64,000 nt of DNA from a virus. Lineage: Duplodnaviria; Heunggongvirae; Uroviricota; Caudoviricetes. Shown in pieces: positions 26,101-64,000 of the stretch. The stretch lies in IMG/VR virus record IMGVR_UViG_3300025942_000001. The stretch is one strand, 5' to 3'. Made by a program: the position numbers and the translations under genes. The notes below the pieces were generated by a model that saw only the letters and a program-made list of their open reading frames with translations, had not been told where the DNA came from and made no database searches. Positions within the stretch are counted from its first letter, which is position 1. Every line of letters starts with the position of its first letter.

Positions 26101-26457
26101 GAAGTCGTTAAGGGAAAGATGTACTTGTTTTTGATCGGTAATAACAGTATCATGAAGTACATTGACTTGGAAGAAGTAAACGAAGCAGATGACATTGTAC
26201 TTGATTATCTACGCAGACCAATATTAGAAGATATTGTTGAAGGACAATATAAGATTCTTTATGCAAAGGCAAAAACTACTAAAAATGGTAAGAAAATTGC
26301 TAATCTAGTTGTCTGTGATTTCGAAAAGAATCTTCAAACGTTAATGGTATTCGAAAAGAATATTCAAATGGTTAGAATGACTTGTAAGATTGGCTCTGTA
26401 AGAGCATTGGATATCAAAGAATATAAAGGGACTAAGTTTATTAATGGAGCAAGCTAA
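23149..26457 (+). CDS. dnaE: DNA polymerase III alpha subunit (DnaE-type, PHP domain plus polymerase core)
   Basis: The N-terminal PHP motif reads LHCHSEYSPLDGF. The polymerase core shows GIRSGFGRGSAAGSLTCYATDIT and a DnaE-like segment FDLLGLKTL. The protein is 1102 aa. Confidence 0.9.
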   Translation: MSFQIAGLHCHSEYSPLDGFCSTDEMMSQAVEIGMPAISITDHGTLAGHRSFQRSALKYNVKPILGEELYYSETDRFDRRAKTSRQDGTSVYVHLIALAMNDKGLQNLQAIDREAWLAYYNKPRMDFELLEQYNEDIIFTSACMGGLLSKAMNERQDYEYAYEQAKKFKGLLGDRYYIELQGHNPVKLNYDLLELADELKIKAIVAEDSHYASEDQRVMEEIFLILSTHPKMDKSFDLAKASKMELMERLDYIYPDSAQKDGKRRMSFRDINLFIGGYDLRKAELVETGINREDIFENTLEIADRISDYTYQEGLDTLPKISDDPNKVLREKVFAGLKKRGLDEKSEYVSRANYELKVIEDLKFPTYFLLVSDAMDFANKMGIRSGFGRGSAAGSLTCYATDITGLDPIKKHLLFERFLDPERTDYPDVDWDIQDDRRGEIKQYLADKYGHVASITNINRYKGKKALKDAARALGVPYAEINKAIKSIEGIDEITGHDVVAEFREAAKKFCLKYPEVPDIAEKLFGKINGYGMHAAGVVVADRAIADYAPIETRKQTGSDQRIEVVALDKNECESLGLIKIDLLGLKTLTVIEDAINLIRQNQGIAINLEHINYEDEDVYHMLGQGRTLGVFQCEAAPYTKLLMNMGCNDFNDLTVSNALVRPGAWNAIGKDYISAKLGKTKGIQIHKDVSNFMDETFGYPVYQEQMMKLSVDLAGFTVGESNALRRGIGKKKREVIDTFKPKFVMGAQKKVTKEVAEKLWTSFEESGAYAFNKSHAVAYSMLSYQTAWLKYHYPLEYMCALLRNEDNRENITDYLLECKQMNIRIRLPHISSSNTTFSIEDTALRMGLSGVKYISDTLAQRIISGRPYANYKEFREYAMTKGSGLNSRVLSALNAFGGASFDDNPVPEDFKKNLYEYLGVPAFDTDMITQRMKDQITPLEEYMDDETFIVMGMVKAIKRGEGWARVDMVDSSGTAGAFADQDIEVVKGKMYLFLIGNNSIMKYIDLEEVNEADDIVLDYLRRPILEDIVEGQYKILYAKAKTTKNGKKIANLVVCDFEKNLQTLMVFEKNIQMVRMTCKIGSVRALDIKEYKGTKFINGAS

Positions 26458-34134: not shown

Positions 34135-34681
34135 TATGGAAAAAAGAGAAGCGTCAGAGGCTGATGTAATGCGTTATTATGATGATCAGTCTGAAGTTGT
34201 TCTTTTGCATGTAAAGGGCTATACGGTAACGGATATCGTTAGGCATACCGGCAATAATAGAAAGCAAGTAGAAAAACATCTTGCGGACTTTAAAGAATTC
34301 GCGGCCCAAGATAAAGCAATCAGACTTAGAGCAAGAGATATTGTTCTTAGTGTGGACGTTCATTACTCTGATATTGTCAAGAATATATATCGACAAGTAG
34401 AAGCAGCAGAATTTAAAGATGATCACAAGGCAGCTATGACTGGCTTGAAAATGATTGCCGATACAGAAGCCAAGCGTGTGGAATTACTTTCCAAGGCTGG
34501 TATGATTGCAGATAATACTATTGGTGATCAAATTGCGGAATCCGAAAAGAAGCAGGCTATTCTTGTAGAGATATTAAAAGAAATATCAAGAGAACATCCA
34601 GATATTGGCCGGAAGATACAAAAGAGATTATCTGAAGTAACTGGTAGACTAGAAGGCGTTATAGTGGAGACTAGACCATGA
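34127..34681 (+). CDS. putative terminase small subunit (HTH-containing)
   Basis: It lies immediately upstream of the large terminase gene and overlaps it. A helix-turn-helix-like segment reads YTVTDIVRHTGNNRKQVEKHL. Confidence 0.5.
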   Translation: MSDMEKREASEADVMRYYDDQSEVVLLHVKGYTVTDIVRHTGNNRKQVEKHLADFKEFAAQDKAIRLRARDIVLSVDVHYSDIVKNIYRQVEAAEFKDDHKAAMTGLKMIADTEAKRVELLSKAGMIADNTIGDQIAESEKKQAILVEILKEISREHPDIGRKIQKRLSEVTGRLEGVIVETRP

Positions 34682-36480
34682 GTCTTGACTTCTCTGACTT
34701 TATGGGTGCTTTGGATGAAGATGAATTTGAAGAAACGCCGGTTGGTGTTGAAGAGTTTGTTTATTCAAAGGATTACCTTGGTTTCCCTCAGTTATCAAAA
34801 TATCAACTTGAAATAGTAAAAGTCGGTTCTCAGATATATAGAGAGTCGACTTTAATTAAACTTCACGGTGCACGTGAAGGACAAAGATTGTGGAGAACAA
34901 ACAAAAAAGAACTTATTCTAACATTGGGAAAGGGTTCTGGTAAGGATGCCCTGTCCCAGATCATTTGTGCTTATGTTGTATATCAACTTCTTTGCTTAAA
35001 AGATCCTGCGGAATATTATGGTAAACCTTCAGGCGACAACATTGATATTATCAATGTTGCTATTAATGCTGATCAGGCAGCCAATGTATTCTTTTCAGGT
35101 TTTAAGACAAGAATAAAGAAATGTCCTTGGTTCAAGGGCAAATATAAGCCATTGGCTAGATCAATAGAATTTGATAAATGTATTAACGTTTATTCTGGTA
35201 ATTCACAAGGTGAAGCTACCGAGGGTTATAACGTTTTATTGGCGGTGCTGGATGAGATCGATGGTTTTGACGAAGGTGGGTCTCAAGAAGGTAATCCATT
35301 AGCCAATAAGATGTATAACACTTTGAGCGGTACTGTTTCATCTCGTTTTGATGATGTCGGTAAGGTTCTAATTCTTTCTTGGCCTAGATCTAATGAAGGA
35401 TTCATTATGACAAAATATAATGAATGTATAGCCGAGAAAGAAATGGTTGAGTATCAACATACTTTCAAGCTGAATATAGACTTGGAAGATGGCATTCCAG
35501 AGAATGAATATTCTATTACATGGACAGAAGACGAGATCATTAGTTATAAGTTCTCAGAAGTCTGGGCTATGCGTAGGCCAACATGGAAAGTTAATCCAAC
35601 CAAGACTATTGATTCATTTAAGAGAGATTTTTATAAGAATGCATCAGATGCTTTGGGTAGATTTGCTTGTAATCCCGCTGATGGTGTTGAAGGAGGATGG
35701 TTCCCATCCAAAGAAAAGATTGATCTTGCATTTAGTGTTGGTAATGGACTTACTGATGTAACAGGAAATGTTGATATTACTCTTAAGCCAGATCCAGAAA
35801 AAGAATATTATATTCATGTTGACCTGGCGCGAGTGCAGGACAATTGTGGTTGGGCTATGGGTCACGTAGAATCGTGGCAATCAACTGTTTTTGATAATGC
35901 TGGTGAGATGCATCCTTATGTTATTATAGATATGGTGAAGTATTGGAAGCCTGACAGAAACAGACCGGTGGATTTCTCTGATGTCAGAGACTTTACTATT
36001 AAAGTAAAAAAGGCCGGGTTTAATATAAAGCTTGTTACCTTTGACCGTTGGAATTCAGATCAAACTATTAAGCATCTAAATGATGTAGGTATTAAAGCTG
36101 AGAAGTTGTCAGTCGGTAGAGATCAATATACCGACCTTGCTACATTGATGGGTGAACATAGAATCAAGGGGCCAGATGTATTATTGCTGCGTAAAGAGTT
36201 AAAAAAGCTGGTTGTTTTACCTAACGGTAATGTTGATCACACTAACAAATCAAGTAAGGACTTGTCCGATGCTGTATGTGGAGCGGCATACAACGCTGCT
36301 ACTTTAACGCCAAGAGTTGGAACTATTGGCACATTCACTCATAGTGATTTTATTAAAGAACGTAGAGAAGCACTTGAATTGGCGGCTAGGAATCAACAAG
36401 AAAATGATAATGTAATCAGGGCACCAAGAGCGATGCCACAAGATGTAGCTGATTTTCTCGCCGGTATCAGGATGCTGTAG
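34678..36480 (+). CDS. Terminase large subunit
   Basis: The Walker A motif reads LGKGSGKD and Walker B reads LLAVLDEIDG. The 600-aa protein has an N-terminal ATPase and a C-terminal nuclease, the usual terminase layout. Confidence 0.8.
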   Translation: MSLDFSDFMGALDEDEFEETPVGVEEFVYSKDYLGFPQLSKYQLEIVKVGSQIYRESTLIKLHGAREGQRLWRTNKKELILTLGKGSGKDALSQIICAYVVYQLLCLKDPAEYYGKPSGDNIDIINVAINADQAANVFFSGFKTRIKKCPWFKGKYKPLARSIEFDKCINVYSGNSQGEATEGYNVLLAVLDEIDGFDEGGSQEGNPLANKMYNTLSGTVSSRFDDVGKVLILSWPRSNEGFIMTKYNECIAEKEMVEYQHTFKLNIDLEDGIPENEYSITWTEDEIISYKFSEVWAMRRPTWKVNPTKTIDSFKRDFYKNASDALGRFACNPADGVEGGWFPSKEKIDLAFSVGNGLTDVTGNVDITLKPDPEKEYYIHVDLARVQDNCGWAMGHVESWQSTVFDNAGEMHPYVIIDMVKYWKPDRNRPVDFSDVRDFTIKVKKAGFNIKLVTFDRWNSDQTIKHLNDVGIKAEKLSVGRDQYTDLATLMGEHRIKGPDVLLLRKELKKLVVLPNGNVDHTNKSSKDLSDAVCGAAYNAATLTPRVGTIGTFTHSDFIKERREALELAARNQQENDNVIRAPRAMPQDVADFLAGIRML

Positions 36481-37632: not shown

Positions 37633-37708
37633 GCCGCGTAGACTGGCTGGTGGCTAGGGTATGTCTTATAAACATATTAAAGGTTGAGTTCGATCCTCAC
37701 ACGCGGCA
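37633..37708 (+). tRNA. tRNA, probable Ile (anticodon TAT), with a slightly irregular fold
   Basis: The acceptor gccgcgt pairs with acgcggc. The anticodon stem tatgt/acata is perfect and the loop is cttataa. The T-loop is ttcgatc. Irregularities are a 3-nt linker, a 7-nt variable region and one T-stem mismatch. Confidence 0.4.
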
Positions 37709-38124
37709 CGTCCGGAAGGAATAACATGTTCAATATTATTACAAGTAAAACATTACAAGTATTATTTGCCATTGTATGTGTTGTTGGTTTAGGTTTTGGT
37801 ATTAAAGCATGTACGATGACATGTCCTACTGTAACTGGAAAACGAGAAGAATCAGGATTCTTTGGTAGTTATTATTTGGATCTTTCAGATAATACAACAG
37901 ATACCGTTTCTAGAAAAATATATAGTTTGAATGACATTGGCGAACATCACTGCTAAGGAGTTGACCGACATGGAAGACATTTCTAAGCTACATCCGATCA
38001 TTTTCCGATTGACTAATCGAGAATGGGAAGAGTTCAACAGAGTGCTTGATCGAGAGCCGGTTTTCATGCCAAAAATGCAAGCACTTTTGTCCAAGCCCAG
38101 CGTTTTTATTCCAGAGGATGAGTG

Positions 38125-38268: not shown

Positions 38269-38425
38269 ATATGAAATCAGTGTACAAGCGAATCGTACTA
38301 CCGTTGCTACATATAGTACTGATTCGGAAAGCAAGAAAAATACGATTGTTAATCGAGAGAAACGAAAATCAACCAATGATGCCATCTTTGTCAATAATAA
38401 GATGGTATGGAGACGTAGAAAATAA
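38261..38425 (+). CDS. small protein family A member (54 aa)
   Basis: MAKYEISVQANRTTVATYS...NTIVNREKRK is a paralog of the neighbouring small ORFs. Confidence 0.45.
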   Translation: MAKYEISVQANRTTVATYSTDSESKKNTIVNREKRKSTNDAIFVNNKMVWRRRK

Positions 38426-38589
38426 TGGCAACATATAAAATAACTGTAGTCGCTCGTGGTGCCCGCTCTAATGCGGTATACAAAACCGATGATACTTCTC
38501 AAAAAGACAAGATCGTAAGGGATGAATCAAATAAATCTAAAACACTATTGATTTATGTCAATGATACATTGGTTTATAGCAACAACTAG
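38425..38589 (+). CDS. small protein family A member (54 aa)
   Basis: MATYKITVVARGARSNAVYKT... starts in a TAATG overlap with the previous ORF. An RBS GGAG is present. Confidence 0.5.
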   Translation: MATYKITVVARGARSNAVYKTDDTSQKDKIVRDESNKSKTLLIYVNDTLVYSNN

Positions 38590-38903: not shown

Positions 38904-39071
38904 ATGTTTACAAATGATAAAGAAGCACCAGAGCAATGTCAGAGATGTGTTACGGCAAAAGCAGTAATGCGTAAAAGAGTAAAAATCAAGGGTTCATGGA
39001 AATCTCAAAATCTATGTTTAATATGTTTTAAAATGTATAAAGCAGAAGGTAGAACAGAGGGTAATAAATAA
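38904..39071 (+). CDS. small zinc-ribbon protein (55 aa)
   Basis: The Cys pattern is CQRC...CLIC. The start lies 4 nt after the tRNA. Confidence 0.45.
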   Translation: MFTNDKEAPEQCQRCVTAKAVMRKRVKIKGSWKSQNLCLICFKMYKAEGRTEGNK

Positions 39072-39223
39072 TGCCAGCCATTGAAGTATATCAAGGTAAT
39101 AGATTGGCTGCTACATATGGTGCCAATACACCAGAATTAGTTGCTGAGATCGTAAAAAGAGAAAAAGAAAAAGATCAGGTTACTCAGATTAAAGTAAGTG
39201 GAAAAGTCGTCTATAAAAAGTAG
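39071..39223 (+). CDS. small protein family A member (50 aa, ends in VVYKK)
   Basis: MPAIEVYQGNRLAATYG...IKVSGKVVYKK, with an RBS GAGGG. Confidence 0.5.
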   Translation: MPAIEVYQGNRLAATYGANTPELVAEIVKREKEKDQVTQIKVSGKVVYKK

Positions 39224-39229: not shown

Positions 39230-39505
39230 ATGCATAAGTCTCGGCGTAAGTGGAACTGCTTGGATTGTAATCGTTGTACCAAGCTTGAACATTACTTTGT
39301 AAAATCAGAAATCTGGTTTATTTCCGCCGGGATGCCTGAAAAAGGTATGCTCTGTATAGATTGTATTGAAGTACGTATTGGTAGACAGCTTAATAGCTTT
39401 GACTTTACAGAAGCACATATTAACAACCCAAAGACCAATTCAATGACTGACAAGCTACGTAATCGTATTGGAGCATCAAATGAAGTTCAATTGGCACGAG
39501 CTTGA
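39230..39505 (+). CDS. Cys-rich hypothetical protein (91 aa)
   Basis: Cys pairs CLDCNRC...CIDC. Confidence 0.45.
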   Translation: MHKSRRKWNCLDCNRCTKLEHYFVKSEIWFISAGMPEKGMLCIDCIEVRIGRQLNSFDFTEAHINNPKTNSMTDKLRNRIGASNEVQLARA

Positions 39506-46333: not shown

Positions 46334-46490
46334 AGTGCTCTGGGAAATTCCGGTTCGAGTCCGGACCAACCTCTCAAAGGGGCAGGTAGAATAATTGGAA
46401 TAATTCGCCCGGAACATGCCCTTATAACATAAAAGTAATGTACCAATCTTGTAAATTGGAAAATGGGGGGCGGTACCTCATAGGGGCTCT

Positions 46491-50322: not shown

Positions 50323-50394
50323 TGGGTTATAGTTTATGCGTTAAAACACCAGCATTAGGGGCTGGCGAAACTGGTTCGACTCCAGTTAACCCAC
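50323..50394 (+). tRNA. tRNA with anticodon TAG (Leu-type anticodon but a short class-I variable arm, so identity is uncertain)
   Basis: The acceptor tgggtta pairs with taaccca. The D-arm reads gttt-atgcgtta-aaac. The anticodon stem is ccagc/gctgg with loop atTAGgg. The T-arm is actgg-ttcgact-ccagt. Confidence 0.45.
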
Positions 50395-50498: not shown

Positions 50499-52115
50499 AT
50501 GTCAAAGGCACTAAATTCAGTTAACACAAAGAATACTGCACCAAAGCAGCAAGCAAAGTCTACTCAGGTTGTAAATAACGCCGGTGGATTTGTATTTAAG
50601 GTAAGCGACAAGGATCGTTTTGAACGCTTTCTTATTCTTGGTGTTGATGGCGGTACTTATTACGTCAAGCAGCAGGATCTTCTAAATCAGAACCTTGATT
50701 TTATTCGCGAATACATTTCAACAAATCCAATTGAAGCAATTGGCCAGATTGTTGATGTGTCTGCAAATGGTCGCGCTAAGTCTAACGACCCAGCGCTATT
50801 TGCTCTTGCATTCGCAATGAACATTGATGGTGTAGATCGTTCAATTGTTTCAGCAGCGGTGCTTAAAGTAGCCCGTACTTCTACTCATCTATTTACCTAT
50901 GCTCAGTTTCTTAAGAATCTAGGTGGATGGGGTCGAGCTAAGAAGAATTCAATCGCCAATTGGTATGAGTCAAAAGATGCCGATAAGCTGGCTTATCAAG
51001 TTGTTAAGTATCGTCAGCGCGACGGTTGGACTCATCGAGATCTATTCCGTCTGTCTCACCCTAAGGGCATTAGTACCAGCATTGGTGACTTTGTTCTAGG
51101 TAAGGATCATGCACAGGTAGATGACCTTCGTATTATTGAAGGATTCAAGGCAATTCAGAAGGCTACTTCTATCAAGGAAGTGACTGATCTAATTAAGTCA
51201 CACAATCTTCCTTGGGAGACTGCACCTACTGAATTTCACAAGAATCTAGAACTGTGGAAGACATTGTTCTATACTGACAATCTTGGTCAGACGGCGCTTC
51301 TACGAAACGTTGTTCGTATTGCCAAGCTCGGCGGATTCAATGATATGGTGTTCGCTGCTGATTACGCAAAGCGACTAGCTGATGAAGACAGAATTCACAA
51401 GGGTCTGATTCATCCAATTGAATATCTAAATGCTGCTGTTGTCTATGAAGAGGGTCAAATTGAACGTCGTGGCAACAGAAATGGTAGCTATAATAGTTAT
51501 GGTATCGATCGTAATAAGACTTGGGAAACAAACAGCAAGGTTCTTGCTGGACTAACTAAGGGATACTATGCGGCATTCAAGAATGTAGAACCTGCAAACA
51601 AGCGCACGCTAGTTGGTGTAGATGTTTCTGGATCTATGTCTTGGTCTGCTGGTCAGGGTCTTGATCTTAGTTGTGCTCAAGTTGCCGGTGCGGTAGCAAT
51701 GCAGATTGCTCGCACAGAACCTTATTCAATGATCAGAGGTTTTTCAGATTCATTCGTGGATCTAAACATCACTGAGAATGACACTCTTGCACAGGCAATG
51801 AGAAAGGTTCAGCGTAACAACTTCGGTAGTACTGATTGTTCGCTTCCTATGGAATGGGCAATTGAGAACAACGTCGAGATTGATACCTTTGTTGTCATCA
51901 CTGATAATGAAACGTATGCTGGACGACGTCATCCGTTCCAGGCTCTCAAGGCCTATAGACAACACACGGGCATCGATGCTAGACTAGCGGTGTTGGGTGT
52001 GACGGCTACGGACTTCACGATCGCGGACCCTTCAGATAAGGGAATGATGGATTTTTGCGGGTTCGATAGTTCTGGACCTGCAATGCTAGCTAATTTCTCA
52101 GCCGGTCGTATTTAA
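50499..52115 (+). CDS. rsr: Ro60-like protein (TROVE domain plus C-terminal vWA with a MIDAS motif)
   Basis: The 538-aa protein has an N-terminal TROVE-like region. The C-terminal vWA domain reads LVGVDVSGSMS (DxSxS MIDAS), followed by further T and D MIDAS residues in FGSTDCSLP. Confidence 0.7.
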   Translation: MSKALNSVNTKNTAPKQQAKSTQVVNNAGGFVFKVSDKDRFERFLILGVDGGTYYVKQQDLLNQNLDFIREYISTNPIEAIGQIVDVSANGRAKSNDPALFALAFAMNIDGVDRSIVSAAVLKVARTSTHLFTYAQFLKNLGGWGRAKKNSIANWYESKDADKLAYQVVKYRQRDGWTHRDLFRLSHPKGISTSIGDFVLGKDHAQVDDLRIIEGFKAIQKATSIKEVTDLIKSHNLPWETAPTEFHKNLELWKTLFYTDNLGQTALLRNVVRIAKLGGFNDMVFAADYAKRLADEDRIHKGLIHPIEYLNAAVVYEEGQIERRGNRNGSYNSYGIDRNKTWETNSKVLAGLTKGYYAAFKNVEPANKRTLVGVDVSGSMSWSAGQGLDLSCAQVAGAVAMQIARTEPYSMIRGFSDSFVDLNITENDTLAQAMRKVQRNNFGSTDCSLPMEWAIENNVEIDTFVVITDNETYAGRRHPFQALKAYRQHTGIDARLAVLGVTATDFTIADPSDKGMMDFCGFDSSGPAMLANFSAGRI

Positions 52116-53581: not shown

Positions 53582-53654
53582 GCTTTCGTAGCTCAGGGGA
53601 TAGAGCTTTGGTTTCCTAAACCAAGAGTCGCGAGTTCGAATCTCGCCGGAAGCA
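53582..53654 (+). tRNA. tRNA-Arg (CCT)
   Basis: The acceptor gctttcg pairs with cggaagc. The D-arm reads gctc-aggggata-gagc. The anticodon stem is ttggt/accaa with loop ttCCTaa. The T-arm is gcgag-ttcgaat-ctcgc. Confidence 0.7.
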
Positions 53655-53655
53655 C

Positions 53656-53964: not shown

Positions 53965-54786
53965 ATGTCCAAAATATTGGTGATGGGTGACATTCATGGA
54001 AACTGGATTTGGGCAAAAAAGATTATTGATGTAGCTGTTGCTGAAGACATCGATAAAATTATTCAAGTTGGTGATTTTGGAGTTTGGCCAGGTCCGGAAG
54101 GCAGAGAATATCTTTTAATTTTATCCAGATATCTAGTAAAGAAAAGCAAAAAGCTGGGTAGACAAGTTAATCTATATTTTCTGCCGGGCAATCACGAAGA
54201 CTACAATCAAATCGATCAGTGGATGCTTAATATCAAACCAAATGAATATGGACATCGAGAGATCGAACCTAATCTTTTCTATACTGGCAAAGTAAATAGT
54301 TGGATTTGGGAAGGTAAAAAGTTCGGTGTGGTCGGCGGTGCAGTCTCCATTGATAGACGTAGTCGTAAACTCAATGAATCTTGGTGGCCGCAAGAGGTTC
54401 TTACTGCTGAAGAAATTGATCAAGCCAAAGAACTAGGCAAGATCGACTATCTATTCACACATGATTGTCCAACACAACATCCATTCAACTTTCTGATTGA
54501 TCACCTTGATTCCACTATTCATCGTCAATACATGACTGACATTGCCAGAGTGCTTAAGCCAAAAGCATGGTTCCACGGTCACTATCATCACTATGCAGAG
54601 TATTTATTTCATCATGATACCGGAGTGACCCCAGTTTATTCTCTGGATGCTGACGTACGTGCTACACACTCTCCAAGTCTTCAGCGTCATACGGTTGTGC
54701 TGGACGTAGAGACTGGTGTAGTATCCAGCATAGACAAGCAGTTCGAGTGGTTCGGTCAGAGATTCTATTTTGATAGGGAGCGTTAA
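53965..54786 (+). CDS. Calcineurin-like metallophosphatase (lambda-PPase or ApaH-like)
   Basis: Motifs present are GDIHGN, VGDFGVW, GNHEDY and GHYHH. Confidence 0.65.
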   Translation: MSKILVMGDIHGNWIWAKKIIDVAVAEDIDKIIQVGDFGVWPGPEGREYLLILSRYLVKKSKKLGRQVNLYFLPGNHEDYNQIDQWMLNIKPNEYGHREIEPNLFYTGKVNSWIWEGKKFGVVGGAVSIDRRSRKLNESWWPQEVLTAEEIDQAKELGKIDYLFTHDCPTQHPFNFLIDHLDSTIHRQYMTDIARVLKPKAWFHGHYHHYAEYLFHHDTGVTPVYSLDADVRATHSPSLQRHTVVLDVETGVVSSIDKQFEWFGQRFYFDRER

Positions 54787-54787
54787 G

Positions 54788-55522
54788 ATGATGCATTCCA
54801 GTCTTGGTATGCGTATGAAAGAATATGAAAAGAATTCTGCCACAGAAAAAGGCGTTAATATTATCCGTCTTGATGGCAGAGCTTTTCATACATGGACAAA
54901 GAAAGTTCTAAGGCATAAAACACCTTTTAGTTATGTTGTTCATGATTGTATGACTCATGCAACCGAAGCTTTGGCATCGGAAATGCAAGGATTTAAACTT
55001 GCTTATACACAATCAGATGAGGCTACTCTTCTGATGGAAAACCTGGGTGAAAGAACTGAAGCTTGGTTCGGCGGAAAGACGCAAAAGATTGCTAGTATTG
55101 CCGCGTCTATTTTTACTTACGCTTTTAATAGCCGTTACAATTATTATGTGGACACTCTTGGCTATGCAGATATTCCTGCCTACTTTGATGCTCGTGTTCA
55201 TTCTATCCCTGTAGAAGATGCACCAAATAATTTTGTATGGCGACAAAAGGATTGGCAGCGTAATTCAATTCAAATGCTAGGTCAATTCCATCTTGGTCAA
55301 TCTGTGATGAATGGATTGAGCAATCAGCAAGTTATCAATGACCTTAATTTTCATGGAATCTATTGGGATTATCTAGATGAATGGAAGAAATATGGAACAT
55401 TCATCGGTAGGAATCATCTAGATCCTAAAGAGAACAGGCGTTTTGTGACATTTTCAGACTATTTATCTTATAAAGATGTCGCAATTCATGCAGACATTCA
55501 TAATTACATTGATTGGGATTAA
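54788..55522 (+). CDS. Thg1-like tRNA-His guanylyltransferase (3'-5' nucleotidyltransferase)
   Basis: NIIRLDGRAFH matches the VVVRLDGRNFH motif of Thg1. YTQSDEATL matches YGQSDEYSF. TQKIASIAASIFTYAFN matches ASKFMTHVASQFAS. Confidence 0.75.
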   Translation: MMHSSLGMRMKEYEKNSATEKGVNIIRLDGRAFHTWTKKVLRHKTPFSYVVHDCMTHATEALASEMQGFKLAYTQSDEATLLMENLGERTEAWFGGKTQKIASIAASIFTYAFNSRYNYYVDTLGYADIPAYFDARVHSIPVEDAPNNFVWRQKDWQRNSIQMLGQFHLGQSVMNGLSNQQVINDLNFHGIYWDYLDEWKKYGTFIGRNHLDPKENRRFVTFSDYLSYKDVAIHADIHNYIDWD

Positions 55523-57464: not shown

Positions 57465-58322
57465 ATGTCAAGAGCGGTAAAATATAATCTAGTATGCAAT
57501 GAATCAGATAATATTACAGTTTTCGTGGCCGGTGAAATGTATGTCGCGGATTCAGATCACAATCCTAACTTTTCAGAGATCGTAGAAAAAGTACTGGCTG
57601 ACGATGTTTCAGTAGTAGAATTATTCGATCTAGAGAAGACAGTTAGTAAGAAGTTTGAAAGACTATCAGAGCGAGTTGTTGTTCGTAATGGCAATATCTA
57701 CTTTGATGGATCACCTGTTAACGATGTTCTTGGTAAGCAAGTTCTAAGATTCGTTGAAGATGACGTAGAAGATTGGCAGCCTCTTGTTCTATTCTGGGAA
57801 AATCTAGCTCAGAATCCCAATGAGCATTCACGTGAACAACTTTACAGTTGGCTTAATGATCGTAAATTCCAGATTTCTAAGAATGGTAACATTGTTGGAT
57901 TTAAGGGTGTCAAGGTAGTTAATGGTGAATATCGTTCAATTCACGCCGGTCCGGCAATTGTGGATGACGTCGAAATGAATGGATATATTCCTAATGCCAT
58001 TGGTTCAGTAATTGAAATGCCTAGAGCAAATGTTCAGTCTAATTCAGCCGTAGGTTGTTCAACTGGTCTACATGTTGGTACATATGACTATGCGAAGGAT
58101 TTTGCTCAGGGCGCGGTGCTAACTGTTTCAGTTAATCCTCGTGATGTTGTATCAGTTCCCTCTGATTGCAATGCAGCCAAGCTTAGAGTATGTCGTTATC
58201 GTGTAGTCAATGCAACAGCGGTGGAATGGTCAAGTGCTGTCTCTGACGTTGAAGATGATGAGTCTGATTATTATGACGACGGCTATGAATATGAAGACAC
58301 CAATGACTATTGGACTTCCTAA
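57465..58322 (+). CDS. hypothetical protein with an acidic C-terminal tail
   Basis: ORF of 285 aa. The putative RBS ccgaaagg lies upstream. Confidence 0.4.
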   Translation: MSRAVKYNLVCNESDNITVFVAGEMYVADSDHNPNFSEIVEKVLADDVSVVELFDLEKTVSKKFERLSERVVVRNGNIYFDGSPVNDVLGKQVLRFVEDDVEDWQPLVLFWENLAQNPNEHSREQLYSWLNDRKFQISKNGNIVGFKGVKVVNGEYRSIHAGPAIVDDVEMNGYIPNAIGSVIEMPRANVQSNSAVGCSTGLHVGTYDYAKDFAQGAVLTVSVNPRDVVSVPSDCNAAKLRVCRYRVVNATAVEWSSAVSDVEDDESDYYDDGYEYEDTNDYWTS

Positions 58323-58337
58323 TGCTATAATTGGTTT

Positions 58338-58847
58338 ATGATTAAAACCCCTAAACCTGGAGATTACGGATTAACGACTATTGGTGGCGTCCTAGGCTTC
58401 TTTGTAAGCTTAGGACAACATCTAGCTGGTGACTCAAGTAAGTATACTCATGCTTTTATTGTACTTGATGATAATACAGTCATGGCAGCTCAACCTGGCG
58501 GTGCTAGAATAGACAAGCTTAGTGACTACACCAATCGTGCAATCTACTCAGGCGCGAACTTGACAGACACACAGCGACACGCTATAGTAGAGCAAGCAAG
58601 AGCGCTTGAAGGTATTCCATACAGCTTTTTGGACTATCTAGCAATTGCCTTAGCAAGATTTGGTATTAAGCCAAAATGGTTAACTAATTTTATAGCCAAC
58701 AAGAAGCATATGATCTGTTCTCAACTTGTTGACGAAGTTTATCGACATGCTGGAATACAACTTTTTAATGATGGAAGATTACCCCAAGAAGTTACACCAG
58801 GCGATTTATTATATATTTTAGCCGGGGAACAAGACTGGATTGAATAG
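58338..58847 (+). CDS. hypothetical protein, possibly a permuted papain-fold (His-before-Cys, NlpC/P60-like) hydrolase
   Basis: A His in YTHAFIV precedes a Cys in MICSQLV. This is weak support. Confidence 0.3.
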   Translation: MIKTPKPGDYGLTTIGGVLGFFVSLGQHLAGDSSKYTHAFIVLDDNTVMAAQPGGARIDKLSDYTNRAIYSGANLTDTQRHAIVEQARALEGIPYSFLDYLAIALARFGIKPKWLTNFIANKKHMICSQLVDEVYRHAGIQLFNDGRLPQEVTPGDLLYILAGEQDWIE

Positions 58848-59013
58848 TGTCCTTTACACAGAAGTGTAGATATTGTAATGAAAAGCTAACTTCAGTTAGT
58901 AGAAATACTTTTAATATGACAATGAAAAATCATGTTATGAATAGATGTAAGAAAGCTACATCGGCTATTAAAAGAGTATGGATAGATCAATAAAATAAGC
59001 CCACTTGGGCTAT

Positions 59014-59087
59014 ACCCCGTTAGCTCATGCGGACAGAGCGACAGCCTTCTAAGCTGTAGGTAATTGGTTCAAATCCAATACGGGGTG
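59014..59087 (+). tRNA. tRNA-Arg (TCT)
   Basis: The acceptor accccgt pairs with acggggt. The D-arm reads gctc-atgcggaca-gagc. The anticodon stem is acagc/gctgt with loop ctTCTaa. The T-arm is attgg-ttcaaat-ccaat. Confidence 0.7.
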
Positions 59088-59228
59088 CAAGTAGAATTCT
59101 AGATATCTACGAGTCAATATGGCGGTTCGAATCCGTAAGGGAAACATATTGATGACAGAGTAAACACTTTCCAGCGATGTTATGCGTAGTGAACGTGTAA
59201 TATATCGAGTGGCTGTGTTGCTCTTTAA

Positions 59229-59300
59229 CTGCCTATGTCCGAGTGGTTTAGGAAATCGTCTGCAAAACGATTCACGCCGGTTCAATTCCGGCTAGGCAGT
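59229..59300 (+). tRNA. tRNA-Cys (GCA)
   Basis: The acceptor ctgccta pairs with taggcag. The anticodon stem is atcgt/acgat with loop ctGCAaa. The T-arm is gccgg-ttcaatt-ccggc. The discriminator is T, as is typical for Cys. Confidence 0.65.
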
Positions 59301-59315
59301 CTTTTGAGGTGAAGA

Positions 59316-59618
59316 ATGACAAGAGAACAAATACTAGCTGATATACTTACTATGATAGAAGCAATGCCGGATTATTACAGTCTATCCGCATTGCAAACTA
59401 TAGCAGCTAATAAACAATATACAATATTACAACTGGCAGAACACCCGCTTGGTGAAGGTAAATTTAGACTGGATTATGTAGTAAATAAAGCCAGCACCCC
59501 GGATAGATTTATGGTACAGATTTTCGCTGATGGTGTTGGTGGAGATTTCTATAATACATATTCAGATATAACAGATGTTGTTATTGTAGAATACAATAGT
59601 TCACAATATGACGTATAA
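59316..59618 (+). CDS. hypothetical protein
   Basis: ORF of 100 aa. Confidence 0.4.
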   Translation: MTREQILADILTMIEAMPDYYSLSALQTIAANKQYTILQLAEHPLGEGKFRLDYVVNKASTPDRFMVQIFADGVGGDFYNTYSDITDVVIVEYNSSQYDV

Positions 59619-59675
59619 CATGTATATATGATACACTGTTCATGGAATTAGCTTTCCGAAAGGATAGGTGACAAC

Positions 59676-59747
59676 ATGGACCCGATATTCTGGTTACTAA
59701 TCATTCTGGTAATTCTAGCTATTATCTTTGTTGCAAGACGAGTATAA
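59676..59747 (+). CDS. tiny hydrophobic peptide (23 aa)
   Basis: MDPIFWLLIILVILAIIFVARRV, with an RBS AAAGGATAGG. Confidence 0.25.
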   Translation: MDPIFWLLIILVILAIIFVARRV

Positions 59748-59749
59748 TG

Positions 59750-59770
59750 GAAGCTAGCCGAAAGGCTAGC
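59750..59770 (+). repeat. 21-nt hairpin repeat gaagctagccGAAAggctagc (copy 2)
   Basis: It is identical to 53558-53578. Confidence 0.6.
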
Positions 59771-59876
59771 GAGGCCCTTTAGTTTAATAGCAAAACCACG
59801 GTGTTACATACCGTAGTAGAGGGGGCAGAACCTTCAAGGGCTACAATATTGTTTAAGATGTGGTATAATCTTAAAC

Positions 59877-60314
59877 ATGAAAGAGTGTAAGATATGTAAA
59901 AATGTAAAGTCTTTAGAAGATTTTCATAATAATAAGAATTTCCCCGATGGGAAAATGAGAGAATGTAAACCTTGCAATAATTCTAGAGCATCCGCATGGG
60001 GTAGAAATAATCCAGATAAAGTTAAATCCCCAGAAGCTTATCTAAAAAGAAATGCAATGCGACACGGGATTACTCAAGAGGAATTCCTATCTCTAAGAGA
60101 TTCACAAGATAATTTATGTGCTATATGTAAAATTTCAATACCTACATCAATAGATCATAATCATAATTGCTGTAATGGTACATATTCTTGTGGTTCTTGT
60201 ATAAGAGGATTATTATGTGGCAAGTGTAATAGGGGTATAGGTCATTTTAATGATGATATTGCGTTATTAAGTAACGCAATAGATTATTTAAATAAATTTA
60301 AATCTATACCTTAA
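59877..60314 (+). CDS. HNH endonuclease
   Basis: CAICK...IDHNHNCC...CGKCNRGIGHF. A TGgTATAAT extended -10 lies just upstream. Confidence 0.55.
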   Translation: MKECKICKNVKSLEDFHNNKNFPDGKMRECKPCNNSRASAWGRNNPDKVKSPEAYLKRNAMRHGITQEEFLSLRDSQDNLCAICKISIPTSIDHNHNCCNGTYSCGSCIRGLLCGKCNRGIGHFNDDIALLSNAIDYLNKFKSIP

Positions 60315-60364
60315 TACCGTAGTCAAAGGTTCGATTCCTTTAGGGGCCACTCATATTACTGAAA

Positions 60365-60586
60365 ATGAGGATAAAAATGGCATATCATTTAAGTAGTGAT
60401 GCTAAAAAACTATGTTTGCTAAAATTTACACTTGCAAATTTGAATTCAAAAGATCCAAATAAAGATGCAGTTGCTAAAGAATTAGCATACATGGAGAAAA
60501 AGGTTAGAAAGAGTGTTGGTCGCAGAGACTGGCCTTTATTAAAAGCGGCAATTGATGGTTACTATAATATGACCTACGGAAAGTAG
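60365..60586 (+). CDS. hypothetical protein
   Basis: ORF of 73 aa. Confidence 0.35.
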   Translation: MRIKMAYHLSSDAKKLCLLKFTLANLNSKDPNKDAVAKELAYMEKKVRKSVGRRDWPLLKAAIDGYYNMTYGK

Positions 60587-60592
60587 TTTAAA

Positions 60593-60739
60593 ATGAATAA
60601 TAGCTTTAGATTTGCAATCTTGGTTGGCCTGCAAAGACTTCCAAACTTATACGAGGGTACTGTGTTTGGTGCTGAAAAAGCCAAACGGAGAGCCAAAGGC
60701 AAGCTAGCACGTAAGGCCCGGCGGCTAAACAGAGCTTGA
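60593..60739 (+). CDS. small basic protein (48 aa)
   Basis: The C-terminus is Arg- and Lys-rich. Its 3' end overlaps a promoter element. Confidence 0.25.
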   Translation: MNNSFRFAILVGLQRLPNLYEGTVFGAEKAKRRAKGKLARKARRLNRA

Positions 60740-60764
60740 CAAGTCTCCAGAGACTTGCTAGACT
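60736..60764 (+). promoter_or_regulatory. promoter TTGACA-N17-TAGACT
   Basis: The elements are exact matches to the consensus. Confidence 0.5.
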
Positions 60765-60905
60765 ACTAACTACAAGGTGGACGAAAGCCACTAGGCCACT
60801 GGTCTGGCAGGCCCGATGGGAAGTCTTAAATGGTGTGCAGCATTTATTAAACTGAAAGCTGCTGTATCCTCGGCACCAGCCTTGTTTCTAACTTGAGGAG
60901 AGAAA

Positions 60906-61064
60906 ATGCGCGAGAGAAGAGAATGTTTTCTTTGTGGTGATGTTGGAACTGTAGCCAAGAGACAAGATGATCATACCGGAAAATGGTTTTGTGCATCTAA
61001 AAAGACTGGCGACAAGAAAACTTGTCTAGCTATTGCTAGACAAACCATGCAAAGAAAGAAATAA
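60906..61064 (+). CDS. small Cys-rich protein (52 aa)
   Basis: CFLCGD...FCASKK...C. An RBS GGAGAG is present. Confidence 0.4.
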   Translation: MRERRECFLCGDVGTVAKRQDDHTGKWFCASKKTGDKKTCLAIARQTMQRKK

Positions 61065-61184
61065 TAACTTAATGGTACTGTAGCCCAAAGAAAGAGGCAG
61101 CGGGATATAAACCGTGACAGTGTGAAAGCTAGTCAGGTGTGCGCTTTGTTTTATCAAAGCAATGACCTCACCAGTACCATGTAA

Positions 61185-61277
61185 GCCCCCTTGGCGTAAT
61201 CTGGCAGCCGCGCTGCACTCAAAATGCAGTTTCTTCGGAAGTACCGGTTCGAATCCGGTAGGGGGCACTTGACTTAG
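61185..61277 (+). tRNA. tRNA-Leu (CAA), class II
   Basis: The acceptor gccccct pairs with agggggc. The anticodon stem is ctgca/tgcag with loop ctCAAaa. It has a long variable arm. The T-arm is accgg-ttcgaat-ccggt. Confidence 0.6.
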
Positions 61278-61303
61278 AATGCATAACGTGGTATTCTAAG
61301 TTT

Positions 61304-61753
61304 ATGTTTAAAACGTGCTCAAAATGCCTCAGTGTAAAAGATATAAATCTATTCCCTTGGAAAAGTAAGTCTCTTGGGAAAAAATCATCTTATTGCAAAG
61401 ACTGTCAAAAAGCTTTATCTAAAGATCATTATATTAGAAATAAGGCTTTATATTCAAATAAAGCAAAAATTAATAACAAATCTTATAAAACAAGAAATTA
61501 TCAATACGTATTAGAACATCTTCTACATAATCCATGTGTAGATTGTGGAGAGACGGATGTAGAAGTATTACAATTTGATCATATAGAAATGATAGGATCA
61601 TCTGGTAAGCGTATAGGCCACTATATGGCAGGCTCAATAGAGGCTTTGCAAAAAGAAATAAATAAATGTCAAGTAAGATGTGGAAATTGTCATATCAGAA
61701 GAACCAGATCACAAATGGGATGGTTCAGAATAAGCCCCGATGGCGGAAATTAG
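61304..61753 (+). CDS. HNH endonuclease (paralog of the 49871 gene)
   Basis: CVDCGETDVEVLQFDHIE...CGNCH. Confidence 0.65.
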   Translation: MFKTCSKCLSVKDINLFPWKSKSLGKKSSYCKDCQKALSKDHYIRNKALYSNKAKINNKSYKTRNYQYVLEHLLHNPCVDCGETDVEVLQFDHIEMIGSSGKRIGHYMAGSIEALQKEINKCQVRCGNCHIRRTRSQMGWFRISPDGGN

Positions 61754-61815
61754 GTATACGCACCATACTTAGAATGTGGCTCTTCGGAATGCAGGTTCGA
61801 ATCCTGTTCGGGGTA
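61734..61815 (+). tRNA. tRNA-Leu (TAG), class II, overlapping the 3' end of the HNH gene
   Basis: The acceptor gccccga pairs with tcggggt through a G-U wobble. The D-stem is gcg/cgc. The anticodon stem is ccata/tgtgg with loop ctTAGaa. The variable arm is 11 nt. The T-arm is gcagg-ttcgaat-cctgt. Confidence 0.45.
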
Positions 61816-61834
61816 CGTTATATTTTAACAATAT

Positions 61835-61906
61835 ATTCGGTTGGACTAACGGCTAAGTCGCCTTGCCCTAGGTTAGGAGATGCGAGTACGATTCTCGTAC
61901 CGAATA
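61835..61906 (+). tRNA. tRNA-like gene with anticodon CTA (amber-suppressor-like). It may be a pseudo-tRNA.
   Basis: The acceptor attcggt pairs with accgaat. The D-stem is gact/agtc. The anticodon loop is ccCTAgg, with C at position 33. The T-loop is tacgatt rather than ttcgatt. One anticodon-stem pair is a T-T mismatch. Confidence 0.35.
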
Positions 61907-61911
61907 CTATA

Positions 61912-61982
61912 CCTCTCGAATTGTAATGGTTGCATACAGAATTGTGACTTCTGTGGAGCGGATTCGATTTCCGTCGGGGGGA
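61912..61982 (+). tRNA. tRNA-His (GTG) with discriminator A73 and no encoded G-1
   Basis: The anticodon stem cagaa/ttctg is perfect, with loop ttGTGac. The T-arm is gcgga-ttcgatt-tccgt. The acceptor cctctcg pairs with cgggggg through two G-U wobbles. The D-stem is weak. Confidence 0.45.
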
Positions 61983-62018
61983 CTTTATTGGTTATCACGT
62001 AATCTCCGGAGGTTGATA

Positions 62019-62222
62019 ATGAGCTGGTCAACAGGTGACAAATCAAATAGAAGTCTTAAAAAGACGGAAAAACATCCTTGTGATGTATGTGGTTTGTCAG
62101 TAGATCATTATATTGATGGAACAATTAGTAAACATAAGGTCTTTCTTTATAAGAAACTAAAGAATGGTTCTTATCAGAAAACTAGTAATTGGGCCTATTG
62201 CGATAATAAGAAGTGGCGATAA
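62019..62222 (+). CDS. zinc-ribbon protein (67 aa)
   Basis: An RBS GGAGG is present. The Cys pattern is CDVCG...YCDN. Confidence 0.4.
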   Translation: MSWSTGDKSNRSLKKTEKHPCDVCGLSVDHYIDGTISKHKVFLYKKLKNGSYQKTSNWAYCDNKKWR

Positions 62223-62341
62223 TGGCTTCGAAACAAAAGTGTGCTAAGTGTGGTAAGAATGTCATGCATTATGATGACCGTTCAATAGAAGTACATAAGC
62301 CACCTGGAGAGACCTTCTATTGTAATAGGAAGACTTATTAA
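62222..62341 (+). CDS. small zinc-ribbon protein (39 aa)
   Basis: KCAKCGKN...FYCN. Confidence 0.3.
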   Translation: MASKQKCAKCGKNVMHYDDRSIEVHKPPGETFYCNRKTY

Positions 62342-62508
62342 TGAGTAAACCTGGATATGGAATTATTGTTTACTATAAAAACGGTAAGACTCTAAAGCAG
62401 GTAGTAGCCAACAATCCGCATACTAGAAATAGAGTTATTAAACTATGGCTTAAGAAACCAGATGTTGATAAAGTAGAAAAGTATACTGAAAAAGATTATT
62501 TACCATAA
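62341..62508 (+). CDS. small protein family B member (55 aa)
   Basis: MSKPGYGIIVYYKNGKTLKQVV is a paralog of the ORF at 40851. Confidence 0.45.
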   Translation: MSKPGYGIIVYYKNGKTLKQVVANNPHTRNRVIKLWLKKPDVDKVEKYTEKDYLP

Positions 62509-62522
62509 GTCGAAAGGCTTAA

Positions 62523-62593
62523 GCCGGTAAGCGTAGGATGTGCGAGCGACTCTGTAAAAGTCTACTCTTGGAGTTCAAATCTCCATACCGGTA
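62523..62593 (+). tRNA. tRNA, probably Tyr (GTA), with a short D-loop
   Basis: The acceptor gccggta pairs with taccggt. The anticodon loop is ctGTAaa on a 4-bp stem. The T-arm is tggag-ttcaaat-ctcca. Confidence 0.4.
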
Positions 62594-62700
62594 CTTTGAC
62601 TGATTAAGTTAGGACAATTGGCTTATGAGCTGGGTCAAAAGTCAGGGCTTAGGCTATATAAGGGCGAAATGCAGTCAATAACAGGCTCTTGGAAGAATGG

Positions 62701-62798
62701 CAACTGTTGGGAATGTTGCACCCTGCAAATATAGCGGGGATTGATTGGACGCAATCATAAAACGTAGGTTCGAGTCCTTCTTCTTCCACTTCATATAA
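62701..62798 (+). tRNA. class-II tRNA-like gene, anticodon unresolved
   Basis: The acceptor ggaagaa pairs with ttcttcc. The D-stem is gcaa/ttgc. The long variable arm forms gattg...caatc. The T-arm is gtagg-ttcgagt-ccttc. The anticodon stem-loop ccctgc-aaatata-gcgggg does not give a standard anticodon. Confidence 0.3.
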
Positions 62799-62811
62799 TG
62801 AAAGGTATAAA

Positions 62812-63039
62812 ATGATTACTATCAGAGAACTAATTGAGCAACTTCAAGTTCTACCGCCGGAAACAACAGTATGGGTTGCAACTGATAATGAAGGTAATTA
62901 TTACAGGCCTCTTTGGCAGGTAGCAATGATGGATACATTTGAAACAGAAGAATACGACGATGGTGTTGAAAAATGGTACAAGGATGTATTCAAGCGTCTA
63001 GGTGACGAAGAAGTCTTAATGCTTTGGCCGGCTGACTAA
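62812..63039 (+). CDS. hypothetical protein
   Basis: ORF of 75 aa, with an RBS AAAGG. Confidence 0.4.
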   Translation: MITIRELIEQLQVLPPETTVWVATDNEGNYYRPLWQVAMMDTFETEEYDDGVEKWYKDVFKRLGDEEVLMLWPAD

Positions 63040-63326
63040 TGCTTGATCCCAATGATGATATGATTTTTACGGTTGAAGATTTTCGAGGTATTACCGTAAA
63101 GATTGGTGATTTGATCGCCCGTGGTTTTGTTGTCGGACGAAGTGGACATACCAGAATTGGTAAAGTATTACAGTTCAAGCGAATCCCACAAGATGTTGGT
63201 AAACCAAACTACTATATCCAAGTTGATTGGATTATGGGAGAAGGATGGGGATTGCCAGCTAAACCAACACTTCTTTTTGTTATTCCATCAAAAAATAATG
63301 ACTTCTTTATCGTAGACCTACCCTGA
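63039..63326 (+). CDS. hypothetical protein
   Basis: ORF of 95 aa. Confidence 0.4.
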   Translation: MLDPNDDMIFTVEDFRGITVKIGDLIARGFVVGRSGHTRIGKVLQFKRIPQDVGKPNYYIQVDWIMGEGWGLPAKPTLLFVIPSKNNDFFIVDLP

Positions 63327-63333
63327 GGTAATA

Positions 63334-63840
63334 ATGACTGATTATATTGATCTTAATTACAAGGTTCAACCTGATGATAAAACAACCAAACGACAATATG
63401 TTGAAGTAAGACGTAGTCGCGCTAGATATGGACTTCACTATATCGATACATGGTCACTAGACCGCTATCTAGCCATTGTTATTTCTAATTCACTAAAGAT
63501 GCTTGCTAACAATACTCAGTCTTTCCCTGGCATTGAACCTTTTGATCATCCAGATAACTGGATTGAAGCTCTTCTTTATCATGCTGAAAGCTTCAAACTT
63601 TATGCCGAACGTGGTAAGTTTGAGACCGAATCTCATGGTGATTATGAATGGCCTGAACATGATTGGGATGATTATTTTCGAGAAGAAGACGGTCATACAT
63701 ATTGGAATCTTCCCGAAGATGAAGAAGAGCCAATGCGTCTATGGTCTGAAAAATGCCGGTGGAATGAAAGAGTCACCAAAGAACGTATCGATGACTCCCT
63801 TGACTTTCTAAAAGAATGGTGGGAAGCACTATGGGACTAG
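63334..63840 (+). CDS. hypothetical acidic protein
   Basis: ORF of 168 aa. Confidence 0.4.
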   Translation: MTDYIDLNYKVQPDDKTTKRQYVEVRRSRARYGLHYIDTWSLDRYLAIVISNSLKMLANNTQSFPGIEPFDHPDNWIEALLYHAESFKLYAERGKFETESHGDYEWPEHDWDDYFREEDGHTYWNLPEDEEEPMRLWSEKCRWNERVTKERIDDSLDFLKEWWEALWD

Positions 63841-64000
63841 ATCATACAAGATATATTGTCTTTCTTAAGAGTGCTATTTTTTATCAAAATGCTAATACAG
63901 GCCAAAGAATTGGTCAAGCGTATTATAACTGCTTTAGGATCATGTGGCCAGGATTTGAACGTGAAATTGTGAACACAGAATTTGATTGTTTTAATGATGA

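Follow-up and report, generated by a model that had tools for sequence, protein, structure and literature searches.

The window analysed in this study is a 64-kb stretch of a phage genome of ~138 kb (contig ~137.6 kb), which uses the standard code, carries its genes all on the plus strand and is distantly related to the Streptomyces phages of the Stanwilliamsviridae. Besides the genes listed in Table 1, profile matches were obtained in the window for a DnaB-like helicase, a primase, a UvsX-like recombinase, rIIA and rIIB. From 37.6 kb onward lies an array of ~21 tRNA or tRNA-like genes, interspersed with small ORFs and nuclease genes. The feature under study is a member of this array, a tRNA-type gene with the anticodon CUA (the CUA tRNA), which is preceded by an HNH endonuclease gene and tRNA-Leu(UAG) and followed by tRNA-His(GUG). 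The coordinates of the features, together with the gene order of the locus in the window and in three related genomes (L001, L016 and L017), are given in Table 1.

Table 1. Features of the window, and gene order at the CUA tRNA locus in the window and in related genomes
Feature	Position	Strand	Evidence or remark
Tape-measure protein	50-4900	+	Profile match
Minor tail proteins	5319-9122, 10392-15299	+	Profile match
DnaE-like polymerase	23149-26457	+	~46% identical to Stanwilliamsviridae Streptomyces phages
Terminase large subunit	34678-36480	+	Profile match
Ro-like RNA-binding protein	50499-52115	+	Profile match
Thg1-family tRNA-His guanylyltransferase	54770-55522	+	PF04446, PHROG 4717
tRNA-Leu(CAA), conserved, left edge of the variable patch	61185-61268	+	ARAGORN, blastn
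Strain-specific patch: HNH, Leu(UAG), CUA tRNA and 5' part of His	61269-61957 (~690 bp)	.	L001 blastn, locus layouts
HNH endonuclease ORF, 149 aa	61304-61753	+	PHROG 2255, E = 7e-26
tRNA-Leu(UAG), 18 bases upstream of the CUA tRNA	61734-61816	+	ARAGORN, Rfam 49 bits
tRNA-type gene, anticodon CUA	61835-61906	+	ARAGORN, Rfam RF00005, sequence; C74 = 61907
Anticodon loop CCCUAGG (CTA 61868-61870) with C33, G37, G38	61866-61872	+	Sequence, constrained folding
T arm GCGAG-TACGATT-CTCGT, A55 replacing near-universal U55	61883-61899	+	T-loop comparison
tRNA-His(GUG), 5 bases past the CUA tRNA discriminator	61912-61982	+	Rfam 42.9 bits
Conserved 67-aa ORF, right-hand anchor for finding related genomes	62019-62222	+	
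Window layout, tRNA-Leu(CAA) to 67-aa ORF			HNH, Leu(UAG), CUA tRNA, His
L001 layout, tRNA-Leu(CAA) to 67-aa ORF			Leu(UAG), small ORF, His
L016 layout, tRNA-Leu(CAA) to 67-aa ORF			His only
L017 layout, tRNA-Leu(CAA) to 67-aa ORF			Different HNH, Leu(UAG), 44-nt spacer, His

The gene was called by ARAGORN at 61835-61907 as tRNA-'Pyl'(cta), 'tRNA-Pyl' being the default name given by that program to the anticodon cta. Read from the sequence, its 5' half is ATTCGGT TG GACT AACGGCTA AGTC G CCTTG CCCTAGG TTAGG, and the part that follows the anticodon arm is AGAT GCGAG TACGATT CTCGT ACCGAAT A. An earlier note on this DNA had described a complete cloverleaf here, and the stem lengths given in it were borne out: the acceptor stem has seven Watson-Crick pairs, the D stem four Watson-Crick pairs and the T stem five pairs including one G·U. 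The loop of the anticodon arm reads as in that note (ccCTAgg), and the atypical features listed there, namely C33, A55 after T54 and one anticodon-stem mismatch (U·U), are all present in the sequence. The nucleotides of the tertiary core are kept (U8, A14, G18G19, A21, T54, C56, A58 and the pair G53:C61), and position 37 is a purine. At the 3' end, A73 is followed by C74. An encoded C74 after the discriminator, without the full CCA, is found in 93 of the 97 tRNA genes of the window array and the related loci L001-L014, this gene included, and constitutes a family-wide 3'-end signature.

The covariance score that had been proposed as a check on the gene came out in its favour. Rfam RF00005 matched it at 40.4 bits (E = 3.5e-07, referring to the 501 bases searched), above the gathering score of 29 bits, and the match was full-length (1-71), in the same register and with the same anticodon. 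This score is the third lowest among the tRNA-like matches in the array. The gene was missed by Rfam scans of the whole window and of 27 kb; the disagreement between a routine Rfam scan and ARAGORN therefore arises because the larger scans lose the gene, presumably at the speed filters of Infernal. Three tRNA-type genes of the array (61835-61906, 62523-62593 and 37633-37709) were missed by the larger scans, presumably for the same reason; two of them were re-scanned in short stretches, and both exceeded the gathering threshold. An alternative fold with another anticodon, which the earlier note had named as grounds for abandoning the assignment, was looked for by hand. The shifted registers have worse anticodon stems, so that no alternative fold gives the CUA tRNA a different anticodon. 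The +1 register (anticodon UAG, with the Leu-like loop CCUAGGU) was rejected for its three stem mismatches. A Gly(GCC)-like register, suggested by a CCTTGCC..AGG string that is common to the CUA tRNA and the phage Gly(GCC) tRNAs, was rejected for a clash in the D stem and an acceptor without Gly identity. A 34.9-kb contig from run SRR5574262, assembled separately, matches positions 58304-64000 with 100% identity. The element is genuine, a gene of tRNA type whose anticodon is CUA and whose genome uses TAG as a stop.

The anticodon and T loops were compared among 95-97 distinct tRNAs that ARAGORN called in the window and related loci. U33 is present in 90 of 95, and C33 in four, namely the CUA tRNA and three well-formed sense tRNAs (Val-UAC at L005 3650-3725, Val-UAC at L011 6978-7051 and Glu-UUC at L009 673-748). 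C33 had been listed as an atypical sign; it is present, but being shared with three related sense tRNAs it does not by itself indicate decay and is no mark of a dead gene in this phage group. In the Val-UAC and Glu-UUC genes, C33 may have arisen as a defence against anticodon nucleases. The features unique to the CUA tRNA are G37, G38, a weak lower stem and A55. In the window and related loci, A36 is accompanied by A37 in all the other tRNAs that have it, and the C32/G38 combination occurs in two of 95 tRNAs, the CUA tRNA being one. Its anticodon stem consists of C-G, C-G and U-A pairs followed by a U30·U40 mismatch and a G31·U39 wobble as the closing pair. The T loop reads TTC in 92 of 97 tRNA genes, and TAC in the CUA tRNA only. 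Efficient decoders of UAGN quadruplets retain U33, A37 and a G:C pair at 31:39, according to a review of tRNA engineering (PMC11231383), whereas the CUA tRNA has C33, G37 and G31·U39 at these positions. From these nucleotides we infer that the decoding half of the molecule is compromised and that it would decode poorly.

The loop is also self-complementary: pairing of C32 with G38 and of C33 with G37 is possible and would leave a triloop of CUA. When folding is constrained to the cloverleaf in the other arms, the closed triloop is predicted at -20.6 kcal/mol and the open loop at -14.3 kcal/mol, a difference of ~6 kcal/mol in favour of closure, and the pair probabilities for loop closure are 0.97-0.98 (P(32:38) = 0.98). 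When folded freely, the CUA tRNA adopts a non-cloverleaf structure of -21.2 kcal/mol (z = -1.3), whereas most of the neighbouring tRNAs fold into the cloverleaf or close to it; its own cloverleaf competes with this minimum-free-energy fold only when zipped (-20.6 vs -21.2 kcal/mol). Plain folding is weak evidence alone, because modifications lie outside the folding model, and under the same modification-free conditions the normal tRNA-Arg(CCU) also closes its anticodon loop in silico, through A-U pairs.

Within the 64-kb window, 15 of the 95 curated plus-strand ORFs end in TAG (95-99 ORFs were counted), 41 in TGA and 39 in TAA. The ORFs that had been cited as examples of TAG termination (34678-36480, the terminase large subunit, 38425-38589 and 39071-39223) do end in it. 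The standard code gives full-length genes for the tape-measure and minor tail proteins, the DnaE-like polymerase and the terminase, and the large late genes, which have no interruption, match their profiles over nearly the whole length. No gene requiring TAG read-through was found within the 64 kb of the ~138-kb genome, where the ORF map is dense in the standard code. The next in-frame stop lies 4-93 codons beyond a TAG (median 13), the medians being 10 after TAA and 7 after TGA. TAG is a working stop, and the genome uses the standard code. The TAG at 39221-39223 is the only TAG stop of the window in frame with the next ORF (TAG GAT ATA ATG); its read-through would join the 50-aa product of 39071-39223 to the 91-aa product of 39230-39505, an arrangement that is probably due to chance. 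A read-through fusion of the terminase with the next same-frame ORF was rejected, as a TAA lies 8 codons past the TAG.

TAG stops are more frequent in the tRNA-array block (13/52) than in the block of tail, replication and packaging genes (2/43; Fisher p = 0.009). Stop usage in positions 1-37600 is TGA 29, TAA 12 and TAG 2, and in 37600-64000 it is TAA 27, TAG 13 and TGA 12. The enrichment in the array block involves stops that are identical in L001, the relative without the CUA tRNA, and all four TAG-terminated genes with orthologues there (4/4) end in TAG in L001 too. Purging or backing-up of TAG stops might be expected if the CUA tRNA were an active suppressor, and these four stops are unchanged.

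The closest relative (L001/L004) is a 139,461-bp IMG/VR contig whose DNA is 77-100% identical to the window over 46.5-64 kb. By blastn, positions 61269-61957 did not align to it, and the flanks on the two sides are 82% and 89% identical. On the right, similarity resumes at 61958, in the T arm of tRNA-His, so that the 5' two-thirds of this gene lie within the strain-specific patch. The 67-aa ORF downstream marks out five assemblies (137.6-139.5 kb) as a cluster, which yielded the genomes L016 and L017. A 98-aa ORF spanning the next tRNA has an identical copy in a 137,582-bp JGI assembly, and a metagenome scan with the conserved downstream anchor returned the L001 contig only. The CUA tRNA is absent at the syntenic site in all three related genomes (L001, L016 and L017). 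As it lies in a patch that does not align to L001, the gene is specific to one strain and belongs to a replaced tract that it shares with the HNH gene. Just upstream of tRNA-Leu(CAA), L001 carries ~1.2 kb that the window is without.

The final codons and the TAG stop of the HNH ORF lie inside the tRNA-Leu(UAG) gene. Homologues of the HNH protein (43-61% identity) adjoin tRNA-Leu genes in a further five phage lineages, and in three of these (L005, L007 and L013) the ORF overlaps the start of Leu(UAG), as does the different HNH ORF of L017; in none of the five other lineages is a CUA tRNA found after the HNH homologue. The HNH coordinates and the start of the overlapped tRNA-Leu are 61304-61753 and 61734 in the window, 4001-4489 and 4480 in L005, 4001-4438 and 4429 in L007, 1204-1641 and 1632 in L013, and 2310-2816 and 2773 in L017. 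Such repeated termination inside tRNA-Leu(UAG) suggests either a mobile unit of HNH gene and tRNA-Leu or a target site within the tRNA-Leu. In keeping with a homing cassette, the nuclease gene is present in some relatives and absent from others, the replaced tract lies between stretches of conserved DNA, and the locus is variable among the four genomes compared.

Homologues of the CUA tRNA were sought in several collections. None was found in INPHARED (50,697 phage records; megablast and blastn), where the searches were empty or gave chance matches, in IMG/VR with three exact sub-patterns, or, with blastn-short and nhmmer, in the 18 fetched loci and in the array of Streptomyces phage Wakanda. 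A D-arm pattern searched against GTDB genomes gave one chance match, in a Porphyromonas coding sequence. Global alignment with 30 tRNAs of the window and L001 and 38 from related contigs revealed no clear parent isoacceptor. Lys(CUU) at 48205 was considered as a parent and rejected, since the ATTCGGT common to the two acceptors is shifted by one base and is too short to count.

Variation in the array extends beyond this gene. Single tRNA genes are swapped between the window and L001, as with a class-I Tyr(GUA) at 62523-62593 in place of a class-II Tyr at 17365-17446, and Arg(CCU) is replaced (window 53582-53655, L001 7892-7967). A 98-nt tRNA-like element (62691-62788, L001 17552-17649) shows nearly all of its difference in a patch of the anticodon arm, AAATATAGCG in the window and CGGTAAGTCA in L001. 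An Endonuclease VII-family ORF (59877-60314) is an insertion relative to L001, and thus a second mobile nuclease gene in the array. Rfam also matched tRNA-like elements at 46418-46488 of the window and 14239-14309 of L001 (40.6 and 39.2 bits), which have abnormal T loops (e.g. GGGGGGCGGTACCTC) and received no ARAGORN call. In L005, a contig found through its HNH homologue, the tRNA array includes a 119-aa protein (1336-1695) with an RF-1/peptidyl-tRNA hydrolase domain (PF00472).

Two further observations concern the Thg1-family and Ro-like genes. The tRNA-His genes of the window and of L001 (16755-16826) have A at position -1 and A73, which means that no G-1 is encoded; the Thg1-family enzyme of the phage may add G-1 to its own tRNA-His or may repair the 5' ends of tRNAs. 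Directly upstream of the Ro-like gene lies a class-I 'tRNA-Leu(UAG)' (50323-50394, 52.3 bits) without a long variable arm and with the loop AUUAGGG, and this tRNA gene is conserved in the closest relative (L001 4064-4135). The partners of bacterial Ro proteins, the Y RNAs, are tRNA-like, so the pairing of this Leu(UAG) with the Ro-like gene may be functional.

We propose that the CUA tRNA arrived within the ~690-bp patch alongside the HNH homing-endonuclease gene and tRNA-Leu(UAG), by gene conversion of flanking DNA of the kind known from T4 SegB homing, and that the donor was a phage as yet unsampled; it is the patchy distribution of the locus that points to such a transfer. The gene is probably co-transcribed with its Leu and His neighbours. 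Its intact acceptor and T-arm half, D arm, tertiary-pair nucleotides and A73-C74 end make it probable that it is cut out as they are. Its decoding half would be compromised by C33, by G37 after A36, by the loop that can zip shut, by U30·U40 and G31·U39, and by A55 at the elbow. Given its occurrence in one strain only, its arrival beside a mobile nuclease gene and its seemingly defective loop, the reading that we favour, and hold on balance to be probable, is that of a co-transferred hitch-hiker, either decaying or with negligible or very weak amber suppression, and with no role in recoding. The CUA tRNA is known as one sequence, and the genome evidence comes from 64 kb of ~138 kb.

Among the three options raised by the earlier note, its decaying suppressor pseudogene fits best, although decay and a barely active CUA tRNA are both allowed. 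Against decay, the three stems other than that of the anticodon are perfect or nearly so and the tertiary nucleotides are kept, so that any decay would be recent or else would affect no more than the anticodon arm and position 55; against C33 as a defect stands its tolerance in the apparently functional Val-UAC (L005, L011) and Glu-UUC (L009) tRNAs. The note's regulated or late-acting suppressor of the recoded-phage kind is not supported: no gene of the window needs TAG read-through, TAG is undepleted, the tails beyond TAG stops are ordinary, the gene is absent from three relatives, and the four comparable TAG stops are unchanged. For its suggestion of a decoy, nothing was found in support.

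A functional suppressor of low efficiency, charged by a host synthetase and giving low-level read-through of UAG, is unlikely but deserves consideration. Charging would fall to GlnRS or LysRS, both of which read U35, and A73 fits Lys; the role could be an early step toward TAG recoding, or the extension of a few TAG-terminated proteins. The intact cloverleaf body, the typical A73-C74 end and the above-threshold Rfam score are in line with this, as are the sharing of C33 with sense tRNAs of related phages, the concentration of TAG stops in the array block and the single TAG in frame with the next ORF. CUA tRNAs are moreover common in the standard-code, tRNA-rich C1 mycobacteriophages (PMC10264068), and a standard-code relative of recoded phages is reported to have gained a suppressor tRNA (Borges et al., 10.1101/2021.08.26.457843). 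However, G37, G38, U30·U40 and G31·U39 are contrary to the needs of an efficient UAG decoder (PMC11231383), which also include positions 32 and 38 that do not pair, and the high-scoring C1 CUA tRNAs, to which the present gene shows identity at the background level only, have canonical loops with U33 and A37 (e.g. UUCUAAA). Nor is the gene conserved in its own genus; TAG is undepleted, the TAG stops and their enrichment in the array block are the same in the relative that is without the gene, and the read-through tails are of ordinary length. We give a still smaller chance to a more specific version, a deliberately unconventional but working UAG reader with a C33-type loop proof against anticodon nucleases, like those of the C33 sense tRNAs in related phages, freshly delivered to a standard-code phage by a homing cassette as the first step on the proposed route to TAG recoding; were it true, a suppressor would have been gained before any in-frame TAG or any loss of TAG stops.

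Somewhat less likely than the weak suppressor is a tRNA-like RNA retained for some non-decoding task, either as a decoy or sponge for a host nuclease or modification enzyme that targets tRNAs, or as a punctuation mark for RNase P and RNase Z that aids the release of tRNA-Leu and tRNA-His from a polycistronic transcript. Such a use would agree with an intact acceptor/T-arm half, the part recognised by RNase P, the CCA-adding enzyme and many tRNA-binding proteins, in combination with a deviant anticodon loop, and with the tight spacing of 18 nt to Leu and 5 nt to His. The phage also has a tRNA-care module (the Thg1-family enzyme, the Ro-like protein and phosphoesterases), its anticodon loops and whole tRNA genes differ from those of the closest relative within otherwise near-identical DNA, and phage tRNA arrays have been proposed to counter anticodon nucleases through changes in the anticodon loop (PMC10264068). 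On the other hand, the gene is not conserved, the three relatives manage the processing of Leu and His in its absence, no nuclease with a CUA tRNA as target is known, and A55 weakens the elbow that a mimic should retain. Complementarity of its loop to other tRNAs of the array is at background, 12 of 190 loop pairs having 6 contiguous pairs; an anti-tRNA idea, in which the CUA loop would face that of the odd class-I Leu(UAG) at 50323, was rejected on the same figure. A pyrrolysine tRNA, as the ARAGORN label would have it, can be dismissed almost entirely, the anticodon and the default name being all that speaks for it. tRNA-Pyl is compact: a single base separates its acceptor and D stems, the D loop is small and has no G18G19, the anticodon stem has 6 pairs and the variable loop 3 nt. 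In the CUA tRNA, by sequence and by Rfam alignment, the body looks standard and the architecture is the opposite: two bases (T8, G9) separate these stems, the D loop has 8 nt and contains G18G19, the anticodon stem has 5 positions, the variable region has 4 nt and the T loop is of the T-x-C-R-A type. No Pyl gene was found among the 20 profiled proteins of the window.

An automated label of 'tRNA-Pyl' or 'tRNA-Sup' in a large environmental phage could pass for stop-codon recoding or for a programmed suppressor. The evidence points instead to a standard-code genome, a gene of one strain and a decoding loop that appears defective. If the CUA tRNA did work, it would offer a rare snapshot of suppressor acquisition preceding recoding, delivered by a homing endonuclease. 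The surrounding array is probably the more useful lead, since relatives differ there by whole tRNA genes or by an anticodon-arm patch; these swaps adjoin the HNH and Endonuclease VII-family genes and the Thg1/Ro-like tRNA-care module, and lie within near-identical DNA.

Classical amber suppressors of the supE, supF and su7 type, which derive from Gln, Tyr, Lys or Trp tRNAs, likewise carry CUA in an ordinary class-I body. They retain U33 and A37, whereas the present gene has C33, G37, G38, G31·U39 and U30·U40, and no parent isoacceptor was found for it. CUA tRNAs in standard-code, tRNA-rich actinophages are already on record, and the gene described here is atypical among them. Supplementary file 1a of van den Berg et al. 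2023 gives Pyl/Sup (CTA) tRNAs in 77, 51 and 8 of 161 C1 mycobacteriophages (PMC10264068), labelled 'Pyl' by ARAGORN and 'Sup' by tRNAscan-SE. The gene resembles these C1 tRNA-Sup(CTA) genes in its position within a large array of a tRNA-rich, standard-code genome of actinophage type. The C1 genes, however, recur (8-77 of 161 genomes), and the high-scoring ones (65-67 bits) keep U33 and A37 in canonical loops, whereas here the gene is a singleton in its genus with the loop CCCUAGG and A55; the ~50% identity between them is background, and they are not homologous.

A phage-encoded tRNA with an anticodon that pairs with UAG is also a trait of the TAG-recoded phages (crAss-like, Lak and others; 10.1101/2021.08.26.457843). 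In those phages, structural and lysis genes contain in-frame TAG and the TAG stop is rare or absent; Borges et al. link suppressor tRNAs to the recoded late genes, and describe a standard-code relative that gained a suppressor after the stop codon had turned rare (10.1101/2021.08.26.457843). Neither condition holds here, where no late gene is interrupted and 16% of genes terminate at TAG. For the delivery of the patch, the closest parallel is T4 SegB, a homing endonuclease of the T4 tRNA region that carries flanking tRNA genes along with it (PMC2330249; see also PMC13096335). Although SegB is of the GIY-YIG family and the nuclease of the window is an HNH enzyme, for which homing is suggested by the patchy distribution, both are encoded by free-standing genes among phage tRNA genes, and the replaced patch of HNH gene, tRNA-Leu, CUA tRNA and partial tRNA-His matches the SegB pattern.
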